From a virus (lineage: Duplodnaviria; Caudoviricetes), in IMG/VR virus record IMGVR_UViG_3300033463_000038, positions 1 through 64,000 of that record: a DNA stretch of 64,000 nt. The stretch is one strand, 5' to 3'. A program made the translations under genes and the position numbers. Position 1 is the stretch's first letter; every line of letters begins with the position of its first letter. The notes under the pieces are model-generated. The model had not been told where the DNA came from and searched no databases. It saw only the letters and a list, made by a program, of their open reading frames with translations. Shown piece by piece: positions 3,233 through 38,342 of the stretch.

Positions 3233-3262
3233 TGTCTGGTCCTTTGTTGAAGTTACGGTGTA

Positions 3263-4422: not shown

Positions 4423-4434
4423 AATTGGTCCTTG

Positions 4435-4692
4435 TTAGTCAATTTCCACATTTACTTGCAGATATGCCGTCTTATAAGGGTTCACATATACCTTGTGATT
4501 CCTATTAGGTCCCTTCGGTATCTCCTGCACAGTCATTCCAGTGATAGGGACTACTTCGGTGGTATGCTTATATTGCGAATATGCCGCTTCTGTTCTGCTG
4601 GACGTATAATTGACCTGACACTGAACGACGTCAGTATCGGACAAGGGTTCGAGCATTTTAAGCAGTTCTGCTTTAGTTATAATAGTTTTCAT
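4435..4692 (-). CDS. hypothetical early protein
   Basis: GGAGG SD, in operon behind early promoter. Confidence 0.7.
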   Translation of the reverse strand: MKTIITKAELLKMLEPLSDTDVVQCQVNYTSSRTEAAYSQYKHTTEVVPITGMTVQEIPKGPNRNHKVYVNPYKTAYLQVNVEID

Positions 4693-4863: not shown

Positions 4864-4897
4864 GGTCATGGTCCTTGTTGTTTTTGTTTACATGTCA

Positions 4898-9976: not shown

Positions 9977-10065
9977 TAAAGATTTCTTTACAATAGAACT
10001 GGTTGGGCGCTCGTCGTAACTCATAATCTCCTTTACTGTTAATCTAGAGCGTCCACGAAGTGAAT

Positions 10066-10099
10066 AAGCTGCAGAGAGTCAAATTTCTGCAGCTTTTCT
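10066..10099 (+). terminator. intrinsic terminator after gp32
   Basis: AAGCTGCAGAGA-gtcaaa-TTTCTGCAGCTT-ttct. Confidence 0.8.
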
Positions 10100-22023: not shown

Positions 22024-22049
22024 AATTTGTCATATACCTCCTAAGACCT

Positions 22050-32380: not shown

Positions 32381-34378
32381 ATGGCAGTCAACAATTCAGT
32401 ATTCAACATTCCCCTAAAGGTCAACAAGGACTTCAGCAAGGCTCTAAACAATCTCGAAGAAGCATACGGCGAAGATTTTGAGATTCTCAACGGTTTTGCA
32501 GAGAAGAACTTGAATTTCTCTGACTTCATCGACGCATTCACAGCGAAGAACTCGGTAACTGCAGACGTTACGATCGACGCTAACGCAAACGCTTCGACTA
32601 AGGACATCAGAGCGCTTCTGAACGAGAAGGATAAGCCTCTCGACAAGATTTTCGCATTCAACAAGCTGTTCCTAGAGCTCAAGCAGAAGTACGGCCTCAA
32701 GACCGCTAGAGAATGGCTCAATCAAGAGTACAGCGGCGGCTTCTATCTGCACGACGCATGCACTTCGACTTACATGGGCTACTGCTTCGCTTACGATCTC
32801 ACTCGTCTCGCTAAAGAGGGTCTATTCTTCCTGAAGAACTACAACAACGTTCCTCCTAAGCACCTCACGACGTTCCTAGACGACGTGATCGAGTTCGTAT
32901 CCTTCATGAGCAATCGCAGCTCTGGCGCTGTCGGTCTACCTAACGTGCTACTGTGGACCTATTATTTTTGGCGCAAAGACGTGCAGCAGGGCTTCTTTAC
33001 CAAGGACCCGGACAGTTACCTAAGACAGAGCTTCCAAAAGCTCATATACCGCCTGAATCAGCCCTTTATGCGCATCGACCAGACTGCATTCGTTAACGTG
33101 TCTATCTTCGACCACAACTACTGCGAAGCTCTGTTCGGTGGCGTAACATTCCCCGACGGCACTATGTTCATCGACTGTGTTGAAGAGTTCATCGAACATC
33201 AGAAGATCTTCATGGAAGTAGTATCGCAGATCAGAAGCGAGAACATGTTTACGTTCCCTGTTCTGACCATGTCTCTCCAGTACAAGGACGGCAAGTTCGT
33301 CGATGAAGAGTTCGCTCGCTGGTGCTCCGATCACAACACCCAGTGGAACGATTCTAACTTCTTCGTCTCTGAAGACATCAACAGCCTCTCCAACTGCTGT
33401 CGTTTGAGAAGTGACTTGAACGGACTGAAGAAAGACGGCGAGAAGCTCACTGGCTTCTCTAACTCTGTCGGAGGTACAGCTCTCCAGATTGGATCGATCA
33501 AGGTCAACACGATCAACCTCGTTCGTATCGCTATCGAAGCTATGGCTAACAAGCCGAAGGGAGAAGCTAAGATATCTTCGATCAACACATATCTCAAGCT
33601 GCTGAGAAAGAGAACTGAGCTCTGCTGCAAGCTTCTAGACGTACAGCGTGACATCATCCAGAAGAACGTCGAACGCGGTCTTCTTCCGAACTACTGCGAT
33701 GGAGGTATCGACATCACTCATCAGTACAGCACAGTCGGCATCCTTGGTCTGTACGAGACAATCAAGGAGTTCGGATTCGTAAAGATAGACGAATTCGGAA
33801 ATCACAGCTACACTGAAGAAGGTATCGAGCTCGCTAAGAAGATCTTCGAAGTCATCAACGACGTCAAGGACAACTTCACCGACCGATACAGCTTCAACAT
33901 CGAGTCTGTTCCTGCTGAACGTGCTGCAGTGATTCTCTGCCAGAAGGACAATCTGCTCTATGACCGAAACGACGACTTCATCTACTCTAACCAGTGGATT
34001 CCGTTGAAAGAGAAGTGCACGATTCAAGAGAAAGTCCGTCTCTCTGGCATTCTAGATGATCTCTGCTCTGGTGGTGCTATCGCTCACATCAACATCGAGA
34101 GCAACTTCCCGTCTAAGGACGTCGCTTGGGATATGCTGAACCGCATCGCTGAAAAGAAGGTCATATATTTTGCCTTCAACAACAAAGTGAACGTCTGCAA
34201 GAACCATCATGGATTCGTAGGTCGAGACACTTGTCCAGTCTGTGGTGAGCCAGTCTATGACCAGTTTACGAGAATCGTCGGCTTCCTTACGCCAACAAAA
34301 TCATACAGCAAGGATCGAAAGAAGGAATTCGACGCTCGAAAGTGGTACGACTACGCTACACAACTGAAAGATCTCTAA
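32381..34378 (+). CDS. nrdD: anaerobic (class III) ribonucleotide reductase
   Basis: YLHD, YC, FTFPV, SNCCRL, TINL.R, PAE, SGG.I, C..H...CPVCG, TRIVGF glycyl-radical motif. Confidence 0.95.
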   Translation: MAVNNSVFNIPLKVNKDFSKALNNLEEAYGEDFEILNGFAEKNLNFSDFIDAFTAKNSVTADVTIDANANASTKDIRALLNEKDKPLDKIFAFNKLFLELKQKYGLKTAREWLNQEYSGGFYLHDACTSTYMGYCFAYDLTRLAKEGLFFLKNYNNVPPKHLTTFLDDVIEFVSFMSNRSSGAVGLPNVLLWTYYFWRKDVQQGFFTKDPDSYLRQSFQKLIYRLNQPFMRIDQTAFVNVSIFDHNYCEALFGGVTFPDGTMFIDCVEEFIEHQKIFMEVVSQIRSENMFTFPVLTMSLQYKDGKFVDEEFARWCSDHNTQWNDSNFFVSEDINSLSNCCRLRSDLNGLKKDGEKLTGFSNSVGGTALQIGSIKVNTINLVRIAIEAMANKPKGEAKISSINTYLKLLRKRTELCCKLLDVQRDIIQKNVERGLLPNYCDGGIDITHQYSTVGILGLYETIKEFGFVKIDEFGNHSYTEEGIELAKKIFEVINDVKDNFTDRYSFNIESVPAERAAVILCQKDNLLYDRNDDFIYSNQWIPLKEKCTIQEKVRLSGILDDLCSGGAIAHINIESNFPSKDVAWDMLNRIAEKKVIYFAFNNKVNVCKNHHGFVGRDTCPVCGEPVYDQFTRIVGFLTPTKSYSKDRKKEFDARKWYDYATQLKDL

Positions 34379-34394
34379 AATATCTTGACTGCAC

Positions 34395-34438
34395 AAACAG
34401 AAAGAGAGGAAGACTTACATCTTCCTCTCTTTCTGTTT
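34395..34438. terminator. 19-bp hairpin terminator after nrdD
   Basis: AAACAGAAAGAGAGGAAGA-cttaca-TCTTCCTCTCTTTCTGTTT. Confidence 0.85.
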
Positions 34439-34440
34439 AT

Positions 34441-34498
34441 AGAAAAGAGGTCCCGTCTCCTAAAGACAAGGACCAGTTGAATAGAAGGAGACGGGACC
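34441..34498 (-). terminator. terminator of the MoxR gene with 24-nt loop
   Basis: 13-bp stem GGTCCCGTCTCCT/AGGAGACGGGACC followed on minus strand by TCTTTTCT. Confidence 0.75.
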
Positions 34499-34504
34499 GA
34501 AAGG

Positions 34505-35617
34505 TTATGCGACCTTGGAAGCGATCGTTTCCTCGTAGAAGGCCTGCAGAGAGTCGTCGGAGATCTGGAAGACCCAGTCTTCGCCGCTGATCATGTCCTG
34601 GTATACGAGGTTGTTGATGATAGCGACCTGAGATTCCTTGCTCATGCCTTCGCGGATGAAGCTGCCGAAGTTCTTCTTCCACTTGGCCGGAATGTCCTTC
34701 TTGTAGGACTGAACGAAGATCTTGATGTCGTTGGCGAGCTTGGTAGCCGTAGCCACGTCGAACTTCTCATCGTCGTTCGGCTTGACAGACGACCAGTCGC
34801 GGAGGATCTCTTCTGCGCCAACGGCAGAGGAAGCGTTCATGTAGAACGGAGCGAACTTGATAGCGATAGTGCTACCGATGTAGCCAGAACCGCCGAGGAT
34901 GACGAATTCGCGAGTGAGCTTCTTGACGCCCTTGACCTTCTCAGCGTTGTAGAGGAAGTCAGAGTAGTCGAACCAAGAACGGCGAGACGGAAGGACGGTG
35001 AGATCCTGACCATCCGTGTCGGCTCCAACGTTCATTGCCTTAGCGTTGCTGAACGGATCGAGATCGGACTTGTTCTTGTTGAGGTATTCCAGAATAGCCG
35101 GGTGGATCTTGCATTCCTTAGCGTGAGTGTACCATTCTTCGAAGGTCGGTTCGAGCCAGTAAGAAGCGTAGCGGGACAGCTGAGCCGGGTCAGGAATTTC
35201 GCCTTCGTAGCCGTGGAATCCCGGAGGGTTAGCAGCAGCGAAGACGCGAGATCCCGGAGCGAGTTTCTTGTCAGCGATAGTCTGGTCGAGGCAGAGGCTC
35301 ATGAGAGCGTTGCGGACGTCCGGGTTAGCACGGAAGACTTCGTCGAAGAAGAGCAGAACCGGAGTGTCCGGTTCATACCAGTAAGTCGGGTTGAAGACGG
35401 TCTTGCCATTGACGATGGACGGAAGACCGAGAATGTCGCCCACGTCGTTGAGGTGAGTGCAGTCGAAGCAGATGACCTTCAGGCCGAGCTTCTCGCCGAT
35501 CTGGCGGATAACCTGTGTTTTACCAATACCAAACTCACCCACGGCGAGCATAGCCTTGCGGGCGGGAGTGCAGATGGCGAGATCGATGAATTCTTTGACA
35601 GTTACTTTAGAGAGCAT
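34505..35617 (-). CDS. MoxR-like AAA+ ATPase
   Basis: GEFGIGKT, FFDEVFRA, AAANP, DPA..SRY, PSRRSW. Confidence 0.88.
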   Translation of the reverse strand: MLSKVTVKEFIDLAICTPARKAMLAVGEFGIGKTQVIRQIGEKLGLKVICFDCTHLNDVGDILGLPSIVNGKTVFNPTYWYEPDTPVLLFFDEVFRANPDVRNALMSLCLDQTIADKKLAPGSRVFAAANPPGFHGYEGEIPDPAQLSRYASYWLEPTFEEWYTHAKECKIHPAILEYLNKNKSDLDPFSNAKAMNVGADTDGQDLTVLPSRRSWFDYSDFLYNAEKVKGVKKLTREFVILGGSGYIGSTIAIKFAPFYMNASSAVGAEEILRDWSSVKPNDDEKFDVATATKLANDIKIFVQSYKKDIPAKWKKNFGSFIREGMSKESQVAIINNLVYQDMISGEDWVFQISDDSLQAFYEETIASKVA

Positions 35618-35663
35618 AGTTATGGTCCTTGTTGAAGTTAGCTCTTTAGTTATTTACATAGTA

Positions 35664-35692
35664 AATATAAGAAAATCCAGAGAAACTCTAAA
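35664..35692 (-). promoter_or_regulatory. early promoter
   Basis: ggggTTTAGA-N17-TATATT. Confidence 0.8.
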
Positions 35693-35964: not shown

Positions 35965-37584
35965 TTAGTCGTCGAAGATGTGAGTGAGCTGCTGGATGGA
36001 AGCGTGATGCTTGACGAAATTCGGCACGGTGTATTCCTTTTCGGAAGAGATCACGAAGATGTGCTGACCGAGGTTGTTTTCCGTCCATTCCCAGTAGCAG
36101 TCGGTGAAGATGACGACGCCGTCGTAGTGAGCGTTGTGAGCCTTGAGCCATTCGCCGATGCAGTGCGGATCAGTGCCGCCACGACCAGGAGCCGTAACCT
36201 TCTGGAAATTCTTAGTCAGCTTCTGCGGCTTGACCATCTGTGCGTCCCAGAATGCGAGATCGATTTCGGTCTTCTTGTAGAAGTTGTGCAGAATCTCGCA
36301 GCCCTTGCGGATGTCGGAGTCAGACATAGAGCCGCTAGAGTCGATGGCGAAGAGCATCTTGGTCTTGCGGTCGGTGCGGTAGCCAGGAAGATATTCGTAG
36401 CGCTTGTTGACGCGGAGACGTGTAGAGACACGCTTGCGGCAGCGGACAGAAGCGCCGAAGCCAGCGATGATGGGAGTGATGTTGACCTTGCGCTTGTTCT
36501 TGAGCATGATCTCTTCCACAGCATCGCCGCTCAGCTTGCCCCAGCCAGTGACCTTGCACTTATTCTCGATCACGTCGCGGATCATTTCGTCTACGATGTT
36601 GTTTGCGCCCCATTCTTCCGTGTTTTGGTCGCCGTTTTGGTTCCATTCGTCGAAGGCGTCTTTTTTCGGGTTTTGCTTTTTTGACTTTCCCTTGCCATCG
36701 CGTCCAGCAGAGCTAGGATTGCTTCCAGTTCCTCGACCCTCTCCAGAGCCCTGATCCCCAGCAGAGTCACCCGCCTCATCAGATTCTGAACCGGTTTCGG
36801 AGCCGTCTTGATCATCTGAAGTTCCTTGTCCGTTGGACCCATCTTCGCCAGTTCCTCGAGAGGAAGACTGAGAAGATCCGTCTTGTCCTTCTTGACCGTC
36901 TTGGTCTTGGTCGCTTTCGGAATCTTCGCCGTCTTGGCCTTCGTCGCCTTGATTGCTGGAGCTGGTTTCGTCGTTCTGGTCTTGATCATCTTGATCTCCT
37001 TCGCCGTCCTGAGAGGACGACTGCTGTTGTTGTTGCTTGCCCTGACCGTTCTGCTGGTCCTGGTCATGCTGTTGTTGCTGTTGCTGTTGTTCCTGATGCT
37101 GATTGAGCAGCTGGAAGACAGATTCGTAGTAATAGTCGTTTTCTGCGATCTTCTGGTTGATTTCATCTTCGATGAGCTTCTTGGACCAGACAGATTCGCG
37201 GACGTATTTAGCGATCTCTTCGGGTGCAGAAGCGAGGAAGATCTGAAGTTCCTTGCTGTTGCAAGTCGCAGTGGAAGCCTTGAAAGCGTTTGCGCCAGTG
37301 AGTTTACGGTGCGTGCAGTGATGATGGATGAAGCGGTACAGCTCGATAGAGAGAATGAAGACGAAGACAGCTCGGTCGCAGCTGCAGACCCAAGACTCGT
37401 TGTATTCGAGAACCGGAGTAACGTCAGTCTTGACGCAGATGCGGATAGTGTCGATGTCGTTGTTTACGCGCTTCGTGAAGAGAGCGTAGAAAGAGAGGAG
37501 GTTAGGAATATAGAGGCCGAAGTAGTCCACCGCGTTGGTGAACTGGAGCTCGATAGCCTTGTCTGAAACTTCTACGTTGGTCAT
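35965..37584 (-). CDS. DUF2201-type peptidase-like/vWA protein
   Basis: IDSSGSM (MIDAS), GRGGT, FTD; long Q/D/G/S linker; N-terminal HExxH position reads IELYR. Confidence 0.85.
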   Translation of the reverse strand: MTNVEVSDKAIELQFTNAVDYFGLYIPNLLSFYALFTKRVNNDIDTIRICVKTDVTPVLEYNESWVCSCDRAVFVFILSIELYRFIHHHCTHRKLTGANAFKASTATCNSKELQIFLASAPEEIAKYVRESVWSKKLIEDEINQKIAENDYYYESVFQLLNQHQEQQQQQQQHDQDQQNGQGKQQQQQSSSQDGEGDQDDQDQNDETSSSNQGDEGQDGEDSESDQDQDGQEGQDGSSQSSSRGTGEDGSNGQGTSDDQDGSETGSESDEAGDSAGDQGSGEGRGTGSNPSSAGRDGKGKSKKQNPKKDAFDEWNQNGDQNTEEWGANNIVDEMIRDVIENKCKVTGWGKLSGDAVEEIMLKNKRKVNITPIIAGFGASVRCRKRVSTRLRVNKRYEYLPGYRTDRKTKMLFAIDSSGSMSDSDIRKGCEILHNFYKKTEIDLAFWDAQMVKPQKLTKNFQKVTAPGRGGTDPHCIGEWLKAHNAHYDGVVIFTDCYWEWTENNLGQHIFVISSEKEYTVPNFVKHHASIQQLTHIFDD

Positions 37585-37615
37585 TTTAGTGGTCCTTGTT
37601 TGTTTCTACATGTAT

Positions 37616-37644
37616 AATATAGGTAAATCCAAGAGAAATCTAAA
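37616..37644 (-). promoter_or_regulatory. early promoter
   Basis: ggggTTTAGA-N17-TATATT. Confidence 0.8.
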
Positions 37645-37676: not shown

Positions 37677-37705
37677 TTTAGATTTCTCCGAAAAATTCCT
37701 ATATT
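37677..37705 (+). promoter_or_regulatory. early promoter (divergent partner)
   Basis: TTTAGA-N17-TATATT. Confidence 0.75.
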
Positions 37706-37736
37706 ATTACTGTAAAACCGTCAACAAGGACCAATT

Positions 37737-38342
37737 ATGATTGACAATCGCGAAATTTTCAGCCGCATAAAGGTAGCAAAGCTCGACATCGACAGCGATA
37801 ATCCTAGTTATCGCATCGCCTGGAATTTTATCCGTGGAAAGATCACGGGATCGAAATTCGCTTCGATCATCTTCCAAGACCAGGATGTTTTAGATAAAGC
37901 TGGAATCGGAGGATTCTATACTAATCGGTCGTTCGTCAACATCCTCTACCTCAGCAAGGACTATCTCAAGAACGGTAAAATCTGGTTCAAGGACGATGAA
38001 TCCGCTGCAGTATTTCTTCACGAATGCTCTCACTATATTCATCTCGTGAGCAATCAGGGCCGTTATTCACAAAAAGATGATGAGATCGTAACTAGCCTCC
38101 CTCCAGCTAATCCTACGAAAGTCAATCCGAAGAGCAGATATTACGCTGAACGAGAAGCCTGGTTCCTTTCGCTCAACATGAACAAAGTATTCAGGCTCAA
38201 CCTTCTCGACGAGATCAACAAGATCAACACACACAACATGCTGCTGGTCGAAAAGTCTCTCGGCCAGCGCAAGATCTCGATGGATGAAGTCAAGAAGATC
38301 GAAACATCAATGACGATCGACCAGTTCCACTGGAAAGCCTAG
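37737..38342 (+). CDS. putative zinc metallopeptidase
   Basis: GGFY, FLHECSH, later E..AW. Confidence 0.6.
   Translation: MIDNREIFSRIKVAKLDIDSDNPSYRIAWNFIRGKITGSKFASIIFQDQDVLDKAGIGGFYTNRSFVNILYLSKDYLKNGKIWFKDDESAAVFLHECSHYIHLVSNQGRYSQKDDEIVTSLPPANPTKVNPKSRYYAEREAWFLSLNMNKVFRLNLLDEINKINTHNMLLVEKSLGQRKISMDEVKKIETSMTIDQFHWKA

Follow-up and report, generated by a model that had tools for sequence, protein, structure and literature searches.

A conserved hairpin behind a phage MoxR gene carries a candidate anti-leader element complementary to early translation-initiation regions

What is known of post-transcriptional control in lytic phages mostly concerns proteins, such as RegA, RegB, gp32 and gp43 of T4. 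The c4 antisense RNA of phages P1 and P7 lies on the same strand and transcript as its target, and its loops complement the ribosome binding site (RBS) of downstream genes; it is located upstream of them and is processed out. The 3′-UTR-derived sRNAs CpxQ, SroC and DapZ share the terminator of their parental mRNA, are processed by RNase E, and usually have their seeds in single-stranded stretches 5′ of the terminator. In Staphylococcus aureus, a UCCCCUG motif in the 3′ UTR of icaR pairs with the Shine-Dalgarno (SD) sequence of its own mRNA, an interaction that may operate in cis or in trans and works through RBS occlusion and RNase III cleavage (PMC3868564). Anti-SD-like sequences located far downstream in B. 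subtilis likewise pair with the RBS and repress, lowering both translation and stability (PMC12697547). Among small RNAs, RepG of Helicobacter pylori uses a C/U-rich terminator loop as its pairing site (PMC8295292), and the CU-rich loops of LhrC1-5 in Listeria bind SD regions (PMC5880928). A first-pass annotation of the phage locus studied here had suggested that terminator-borne anti-RBS RNAs form a class not previously described, a claim that in principle gives way before these bacterial 3′-UTR anti-SD motifs and terminator-loop seeds (PMC3868564, PMC8295292, PMC5880928).

The locus lies in an uncultured T4-like jumbo phage. We analysed a window consisting of the first 64 kb of its 119.7-kb viral contig, which has an estimated completeness of ~47%, encodes gp32 (identified by a Pfam match), the topoisomerase II large subunit, NrdD and a T4-type terminase, and carries the T4 late-promoter consensus TATAAATA upstream of many genes. 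A DNA similarity search of deposited phages with this sequence returned no match. We propose that the hairpin at the end of the MoxR mRNA is probably a 3′-UTR anti-leader element, one whose partners, in cis or in trans, would be the translation-initiation regions of early mRNAs.

A large-loop hairpin and a private early RBS tag

The convergent genes NrdD and MoxR are separated by a spacer of 126 nt that holds two hairpins. The features of the locus are as follows.

32381-34378, plus strand: NrdD, convergent with MoxR
34395-34438, bidirectional: second hairpin, a canonical terminator with a 19-bp stem and 6-nt loop between NrdD and MoxR
34439-34448, minus strand: U-rich tract UCUUUUCUAU directly after the stem of the MoxR hairpin, the terminator tail for MoxR-sense transcription
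34449-34498, minus strand: hairpin in the 3′ UTR of the MoxR mRNA, 13-bp stem and 24-nt loop
34462-34485, minus strand: loop of this hairpin, RNA UCUAUUCAACUGGUCCUUGUCUUU, 24 nt, with an 18-nt core UUCAACUGGUCCUUGUCU invariant in close relatives
34466-34475, minus strand: anti-RBS decamer UGGUCCUUGU within the loop, perfectly complementary to the early RBS tag ACAAGGACCA
34505-35617, minus strand: gene for a MoxR-type AAA+ ATPase (Pfam AAA_5 / bpMoxR; homologues), whose transcript bears the hairpin
35965-37584, minus strand: vWA coding sequence, upstream of MoxR
37737-38342, plus strand: divergent 201-aa gene, called HExxH after the label in the first-pass annotation; no family matched it in a Pfam search

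The first-pass annotation had described a 13-bp stem with a 24-nt loop at the end of the minus-strand MoxR transcript, and we recovered the same structure: the arms at 34449-34461 and 34486-34498 form 13 perfect pairs, 10 of them G-C, starting 6 nt past the MoxR stop codon in a 3′ UTR of ~60 nt, and the whole intergenic region has a fold z-score of -10.4. The G+C-rich stem past the stop codon and the U-run directly behind it are features of intrinsic terminators, but these have short loops, typically of 3-8 nt, compared with 24 nt here and 23-28 nt in relatives. A consensus terminator scan for loops of ≤8 nt accordingly left the 13-bp hairpin unreported and returned only a small alternative hairpin inside it (34470-34452). 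The large hairpin would double as the first of two tandem terminators, ending early MoxR transcripts and probably vWA-orf-MoxR transcripts as well. Rfam covariance models run over the 64-kb window assigned no family, c4 included, at gathering score. A promoter scan across the MoxR gene turned up no sigma-70-like promoter on its minus strand.

The annotation had also stated that the loop is the exact complement of a motif at five early-gene RBSs, those of MoxR and vWA among them, and this proved correct. On length alone, ~0.1 exact copies of the motif, ACAAGGACCA, would be expected in the window, which has 6. Five of them precede early-gene ATGs by 3-5 nt and lie ~20-35 nt downstream of TTTAGA-N17-TATATT promoters; the sixth, in inverse orientation, is the loop. 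Allowing one mismatch gives 9 matches compared to 2.35 in shuffled sequence (0/100 shuffles reach 9), and one further early RBS with the motif lies in the rest of the contig. The tagged leaders in the window are listed below.

3237-3244, minus strand: variant tag AAGGACCA(G) behind an early promoter
4426-4435, minus strand: exact tag before an ATG, from the motif scan
4869-4878, minus strand: exact tag before an ATG, from the motif scan
35618-35692, minus strand: MoxR early promoter (TTTAGA-17-TATATT at 35664-35692) and ~40-nt leader, tag at 35623-35632
37590-37644, minus strand: vWA early promoter (37616-37644) and leader, exact tag copy at 37590-37599
37677-37733, plus strand: divergent early promoter and leader of the HExxH gene, tag at 37724-37733

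In the incomplete contig the core AAGGACC(A) serves as the RBS of ~9 early cassettes; the complete genomes of the relatives G1 (248 kb) and G2 (243 kb) have ~20-25 such cassettes each. Because other genes use ordinary AAGGAG/GGAGG sites, we regard AAGGACC as a private tag of the early class; the collections searched contained no sister clade with an early RBS tag other than this one. Canonical pairing with the 16S anti-SD does not appear to account for the CC extension, and the CC(A) would be explained if it served as an address for anti-leader loops.

We then assessed the complementarity statistically. In composition-preserving shuffles of the loop, the decamer arose at a frequency of 5e-5 and the 7-mer core at one of 0.25%. 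A generic longest-complement test, in which 24% of shuffles find a complement of at least 10 nt to A-rich start regions, is confounded by the U-rich and A-rich compositions of the two partners, and the motif-specific shuffle was used in its place. Hybridisation of the hairpin with phage leaders, a check that the first-pass annotation had suggested, did not discriminate either: when the loop was run against 142 start regions with RNAduplex, 62% of shuffled U-rich loops reached the observed best energy, and the ranking did not separate early leaders from other start regions. The coincidence is significant only relative to the predefined motif, and since the generic hybridisation tests were not significant, the case is built on that motif together with conservation, the cross-genome comparison weighing most. 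Depletion of GGUCCUU in coding sense strands was not convincing (4, 9 and 9 observed versus ~7, 14 and 14 expected).

Structure prediction places the GGUCC positions of the loop unpaired in the fold ensemble of the full-length mRNA. A partition-function fold of the full-length mRNA gives no information on a 5′-3′ contact, since pairing of loop and leader would form a pseudoknot, which nested folding cannot represent. On the target side, the MoxR leader is predicted to form a weak hairpin, AGAGC (35641-35645) with GCUCU (35611-35615), that encloses the RBS in its loop; one relative (L045) has a compensatory UGCCA/UGGCA at this hairpin, a single covariation event. The MoxR RBS may be presented in a manner suited to loop-loop contact, although this leader hairpin is only suggestive.

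Loop conservation and loop-leader co-variation among relatives

To follow the element beyond the window, we gathered MoxR homologues from viral contigs, from a protein database together with the source contigs, and from metagenome contigs, and built a covariance model (R1) from five close copies of the hairpin. The hairpin is present in 13 distinct relatives whose MoxR proteins are 98-57% identical to that of the window, as one sense copy per genome and always directly after MoxR. L049, with a MoxR only 44% identical, has neither AAGGACC RBSs nor the hairpin. A MAFFT alignment of the hairpins was not structure-consistent, and in the covariance-model-guided alignment used instead, which favours the modelled structure, 99.4% of stem cells are paired and both-side changes occur in 6/12 pairs (25 cells). 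The stem covariation score is 0.483, compared to 0.18 with shuffled partners (0/500 reach the observed score) and 0.06-0.19 with partners slid by 1-3 columns. The raw sequences themselves contain eight different perfect stems, for example GGUCCCGUCUCC, GGUCCCACCCUC, GGACCCUCACCC and GCCCCACCUCC. In contrast to this rewriting of the stem, UGGUCCUU is identical in 13/13 loops, with variation at the loop ends; the distant group has its own invariant block, UGGUCCUUU(U)GUUUUACAC. This pattern is the reverse of a variable loop on a conserved stem, which the first-pass annotation had named as evidence against its reading. One lineage, L047 (63% identical), has a shorter hairpin with the 11-nt loop UCCUGGUCCUU and without a U-run.

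These comparisons bear directly on the view that the hairpin is a plain terminator or 3′-end stability structure whose loop is constrained by an alternative fold of GGUCCUUGUCU with the 3′ arm. The small alternative hairpin returned by the consensus scan, which would be a small canonical terminator, is this fold as it occurs in the window group, and in most lineages a U-run does follow the stem (tails UUUUUCUAUA, UUUUUGCAG and similar, with a poor tail in L048). However, the alternative pairing needs GGUCC/GGACC at the stem ends, which L044, L048 and L050 have lost while the loop core remains invariant; L047 keeps the loop on a hairpin with no U-run; and loops of 23-28 nt are retained in all type-A lineages even though they weaken termination. 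We therefore consider this explanation very unlikely.

Comparison among relatives also bears on which strand is functional. Downstream of MoxR and its hairpin lies convergent NrdD in some lineages and a co-directional late gene behind TATAAATA in others, and the hairpin is kept in both settings. If instead the opposite strand or the DNA were functional, AAGGACC might act on plus-strand read-through RNA as an RBS or protein decoy, or the site might bind a regulator of early promoters. The plus-strand loop does read like a leader, ACAAGGACCAG followed by TTG; its ACAAGGA bears what we take to be a resemblance to GGA-in-loop protein sites of the CsrA type; and the GGWCC core is palindromic. Nevertheless, the downstream gene is co-directional in most relatives, and in these lineages there is no evident transcript on the opposite strand, while in the window a strong terminator stands between NrdD and the hairpin. 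G·U pairs fit only the MoxR-sense RNA: two in the L047 stem would be A·C mismatches on the opposite strand, and the closing stem pair in L011 and L043 is a G·U in the MoxR sense only. Compensatory conservation of the stem further argues for a folded single strand rather than a site in duplex DNA. The plus strand showed no conserved ORF and no early promoter before the motif. A small plus-strand ORF starting at the TTG spans 38 codons in the window and was rejected because the frame is only 2 codons long in relatives (TTG AAT TGA or TTG AAC TAA). Function on the opposite strand or in the DNA is thus highly improbable, and the plus-strand site or relic RBS that the annotation had offered as an alternative is disfavoured with it.

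Returning to the anti-leader reading, we compared each loop with the leaders of its own genome. In all lineages, 9-16 contiguous nucleotides of the loop are Watson-Crick complementary to a leader of the local vWA/MoxR/HExxH module. Loops match the vWA leader best in L045 (16 nt, the loop being nearly a full antisense of that 22-nt leader), L043 (13 nt) and L050 (12 nt), whereas L048 matches its MoxR leader over 13 nt and the best target in G1 is the HExxH-gene leader (12 nt). The A-run before GGACC agrees between loop and leader in each case, as ACAAGG in the window group, CAAAAGG in L043 and L045, and CAAAGG in L044 and L048, and the loops of the distant group carry GUUUUACAC towards their 3′ end, which complements GUAAAAC, a box found where early transcripts start. 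Own-lineage complements average 11.8 nt compared to 10.05 nt across lineages (permutation p=0.0002, not phylogeny-corrected), and because the lineages are related, this co-variation of the loop flanks represents few independent events. UGGUCCUU and AAGGACC are invariant on both sides, and consequently no covariation exists within the core itself. Taken together, an invariant loop on a co-varying stem with flanks that track the leaders supports selection on the loop as an antisense of early leaders, as judged from these alignments.

Selection of another kind would act on the loop if its pyrimidine-rich sequence were recognised by an RNA-binding protein of phage or host, with the leader complementarity incidental or serving another purpose such as transcript stability or processing. 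The invariant blocks, UUCAACUGGUCCUUGUCU (18 nt) and UGGUCCUUU(U)GUUUUACAC, are longer than the complement to most leaders, and the hybridisation energy is not discriminating; indeed, since the 18-nt core of the close group exceeds its 10-nt leader match, something besides leader pairing may constrain the loop. A protein site does not, however, account for the extra conserved bases of the distant group, which complement the TSS-proximal GUAAAAC box of early leaders, or for the complement to the loop's A-run, whose length follows the local leaders, and no candidate protein is known. We regard a protein site as unlikely.

Gene conversion among the leader copies is another possible source of the loop-leader co-variation, and the element might then be a neutral by-product, an inverted leader copy caught in a terminator loop by PeSL-like recombination and kept similar by conversion. 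The reverse complement of the loop does resemble a condensed early leader, with TSS box and RBS, and recombination at repeated promoter/SD cassettes is known from T4-type phages (PMC4122927, PMC2839356). Yet the element occupies the same position at 57-69% MoxR identity, where the stem has been rewritten several times and the surrounding 3′ UTR has diverged, and an unselected loop segment of 8-20 nt should have decayed by then. Repeats of 10-16 bp are moreover very short for conversion, and the same loop recurs in a second context, in the L047 type and in a terminator elsewhere in the contig (element 2, below). A neutral origin therefore seems quite improbable.

Proposed action and sister elements

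In the mechanism we favour, the loop would present an antisense of the private early leader, with UGGUCCUU complementing the RBS tag AAGGACC(A) and the flanks complementing the leaders of the module. Pairing between loop and leader would occlude the SD region of early mRNAs, and the duplex might also create a double-stranded RNase target. In cis, the contact would join the 5′ and 3′ ends of one transcript, as in icaR; in trans, a stable terminator fragment of the kind that the first-pass annotation had proposed would act like a 3′-UTR-derived or RepG-like sRNA; and the two modes may coexist. As a result, the module, and possibly the ~20-gene early class, would be translated less or at a set time. 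What the comparisons show is the fold, its orientation, the constancy of the loop and the joint change of loop and leader. That pairing takes place in vivo, what sign its effect has, and whether it acts in cis or in trans are points that we infer.

MoxR has its own promoter, and a scan between vWA and MoxR detected no terminator, so that the vWA and MoxR leaders likely lie on transcripts ending in the hairpin, which makes a cis 5′-3′ contact plausible. The seed is invariant and each complete relative has ~20-25 AAGGACC leaders as potential trans targets, yet the best matches are mostly in the local module. Cis pairing within vWA-MoxR transcripts fits at least as well as a trans fragment, and by analogy with RepG and LhrC a trans role is equally possible.

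We asked whether other terminators of these phages carry similar loops, using a census of perfect-stem terminators in the contig (G0), G1 and G2. Nearly all loops are 3-13 nt long and have no anti-SD resemblance, apart from a few exceptions. Related anti-SD loops do occur on other early transcripts of the same phage: two more conserved early-transcript terminators with such loops lie outside the window, and one candidate lies within it.

10004-10055, plus strand, in the window: gp32 3′-UTR hairpin, candidate sister element, 34-nt loop with CUCCUUUACU
97006-97038 of G0, plus strand: second terminator (element 2), loop UCCUGGUCCUU, the same as that behind MoxR in L047, with a late promoter following
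~118630-118750 of G0: ORF-less early RNA of ~125 nt with an early promoter, terminator loop UCACCUCCUUC

The terminator at 97006-97038 is conserved in G2 and has a compensatory stem change in G1, where the loop variant UUCUGGUCCUU has an 11-nt match to two G1 leaders. Relatives of the gene upstream of it were sought, and G1 alone was found. When viral contigs were scanned for the type-B loop and the pairs that close it, 61 hits came up, with a comparable 11-pair stem only in the two known relatives; four other hits have 6-pair stems and were judged chance. In G0 as in G1, a small hairpin just upstream of this terminator has a loop that complements 10 nt of the region around the vWA start codon, which ranks top of 131 start regions in G0 and tied top of 335 in G1; with chance at ~0.03 by a rough count, this match is only suggestive. 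The loop of the ORF-less RNA, UCACCUCCUUC, copies the 3′ tail of 16S rRNA (UCACCUCCUU). Its G1 counterpart has the same promoter and the loop UCACCUCCUAU on a wholly different stem and body, and in G2 the promoter drives a protein gene instead.

The annotation had further proposed that hairpins at gp32 and gyrA form a family with the MoxR element. The gp32 member stands as a candidate, since co-variation in G1 and G2 preserves the stem and the loops, 31-34 nt long, keep a UCCUUUUACU-type motif. The gyrA anti-RBS (~22030-22045) is not conserved in G1, the closest complete relative, and for that reason we do not count it as a sister.

A broader reading, which we hold as a possible but doubtful extension, is a clade-wide RNA programme in T4-like rumen and gut phages, in which early genes are tagged with AAGGACC and early RNAs with anti-leader or anti-SD loops titrate or destroy early, possibly host, messages as these RNAs accumulate. 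Its RNAs would be the MoxR 3′ hairpin, the second terminator with the same loop, the gp32 3′-UTR hairpin and the stand-alone ORF-less sRNA. Anti-leader or anti-SD loops are found on only two of the ~20-25 early transcription units per genome. If such a programme exists, antisense RNA would do what the RegA and RegB proteins do in T4; Pfam searches for RegA and RegB in G0-G2 detected no domain, and the control genomes were silent as well.

If a conserved antisense element is aimed at the leader common to a temporal gene class, it would time or dose early proteins by RNA alone, as a compact device built into the terminator of one of those genes. With a rewritten stem, a frozen loop and flanks that track the leaders, it would also offer unusually clean comparative support for a bacterial-type interaction between 5′ UTR and 3′ UTR or terminator loop. 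Because target motif and seed are both short and defined, the idea is directly testable with reporters.

Comparison with described regulatory RNAs

A full-text search of a limited literature collection found no such phage element described among papers on phage sRNAs, anti-SD sequences and terminators. The c4 RNA is similar in being a phage RNA with an RBS-complementary loop on the transcript of its target, but c4 lies upstream of that target, whereas the hairpin here is 3′. Like CpxQ, SroC and DapZ, the candidate regulatory RNA is co-terminal with an mRNA and would be made whenever its parent is transcribed.

The setting also recalls the PeSL cassettes of T4-type genomes, in which early promoter and SD cassettes are repeated near stem-loops (PMC4122927, PMC2839356), and the early cassette TTTAGA-17-TATATT ... 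AAGGACC-ATG is of this sort. The PeSL stem-loop, however, lies just upstream of a promoter, and the text searched describes no complementarity between loop and SD (PMC4122927, PMC2839356). The MoxR hairpin is followed by the bidirectional terminator in the window or by a late TATAAATA promoter in relatives, never by an early promoter, and is for that reason not a PeSL cassette.

RepG and LhrC resemble the element, by sequence complementarity only, in offering a pyrimidine-rich hairpin loop to a purine-rich leader or SD region. They are stand-alone bacterial sRNA genes, whereas the phage hairpin is the 3′ end of the protein-coding MoxR mRNA; a closer analogue would be the ORF-less transcript at 118.6-118.75 kb of G0, which has its own early promoter and no conserved ORF. 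With icaR, the locus shares a 3′-UTR anti-SD motif complementary to an SD of the same mRNA, here the decamer against the MoxR and vWA RBSs. The icaR 3′ UTR is ~390 nt long, and its motif lies 260 nt past the stop codon, outside the terminator loop. In the phage, by comparison, the 3′ UTR is ~60 nt, the motif sits in the loop of a terminator-like hairpin, and it matches the tag of a temporal gene class. By analogy, the element would work like an icaR-type 3′-UTR anti-SD motif placed in a RepG-like terminator loop. Mechanisms of this kind are known in bacteria, and what seems to set the phage element apart is its placement in a terminator loop and a putative target that is the tag of an entire gene class.

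Hairpin loops at gp32 and an early operon end, and an anti-SD string at the topoisomerase gene

The anti-RBS loop of the MoxR hairpin has a counterpart at about 97 kb of G0, the window's own contig, where an early operon closes with two hairpins.

G0 96977-97041 (L061:1978-2042), beyond the window: two tandem hairpins at the early operon end

The second of these, a terminator, has the loop UCCUGGUCCUU, whose anti-RBS core is identical to that of the MoxR hairpin, and this terminator is kept in the complete relatives G1 and G2 with a compensatory change in the stem. The first has a CCUAGG stem, and its loop complements the vWA start-codon region AAAUGACCAA over 10 nt in both G0 and G1. Within the window, three further elements lie near the gp32 and topoisomerase genes.

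10004-10055, plus strand: gp32 3'UTR hairpin, 34-nt loop with CUCCUUUACU
10066-10095, plus strand: terminator 3' of gp32, loop GA(A)GUCAAAUU(U)
22030-22045, plus strand: anti-SD/anti-AUG string CAUAUACCUCCUAAG, 5' of the topoisomerase (gyrA-like) terminator

In the gp32 3'UTR hairpin, a loop motif of the UCCUUUUACU type is retained in G1 and G2, with the stem rewritten by compensation. The gp32 terminator has a constant loop across G0, G1 and G2 on three different stems. The string near the topoisomerase terminator was missing from the corresponding place in G1 and is therefore unlikely to be conserved.

The MoxR leader, a near-identical leader elsewhere in G0, and the MoxR locus of relatives

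35611-35645, minus strand: weak hairpin predicted in the MoxR leader, AGAGC pairing with GCUCU
G0 90590-90645 (L063): second gene with a MoxR-like leader (…GAUCUAACUUCAACAAGGACCAUAACUAUG)

The MoxR leader hairpin can form with the RBS and AUG inside a loop of ~25 nt, and at its position one relative (L045) carries UGCCA/UGGCA in place of AGAGC/GCUCU. The leader of the second gene is almost identical to that of MoxR, which suggests that the promoter-leader cassette was duplicated as a whole.

At the MoxR loci of several relatives (L008-L011, L043, L066 and L070), a short repeat around GCUUAGCGCAAGCUUC, which includes a palindrome centred on AAGCTT, separates the MoxR stop codon from the hairpin in varying copy number; the window itself has zero copies. 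In one of these relatives (L043:11309-14863), an inserted same-strand ORF of 372 aa interrupts NrdD, which is left as two Pfam-NRDD parts of 352 and 454 aa.

A candidate early sRNA and composite terminator-promoter units

G0 ~118600-118750 (L062:1600-1750), beyond the window: ORF-less early transcript from early promoter TTTACG-17-TATATT

This ~125-nt RNA, a candidate phage early sRNA, has no conserved ORF and terminates at a strong hairpin whose 11-nt loop, UCACCUCCUUC, is a copy of the 16S rRNA 3' tail. Its G1 counterpart shares the promoter and loop and is unrelated in body and stem; in G2 a protein gene occupies this position.

In several terminator hairpins of G1 and G2, the loop contains TTTAGATT or TTTACG, which is the upstream element of the early promoter that follows, and the -10 box stands immediately 3' of the hairpin's 3' arm. 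Three examples are:

G2 142845-142873: composite terminator-promoter
G2 145360-145389: composite terminator-promoter
G1 139188-139218: composite terminator-promoter

These composite units are of the PeSL kind, the promoter and SD cassettes adjoining a stem-loop in T4-type phages.
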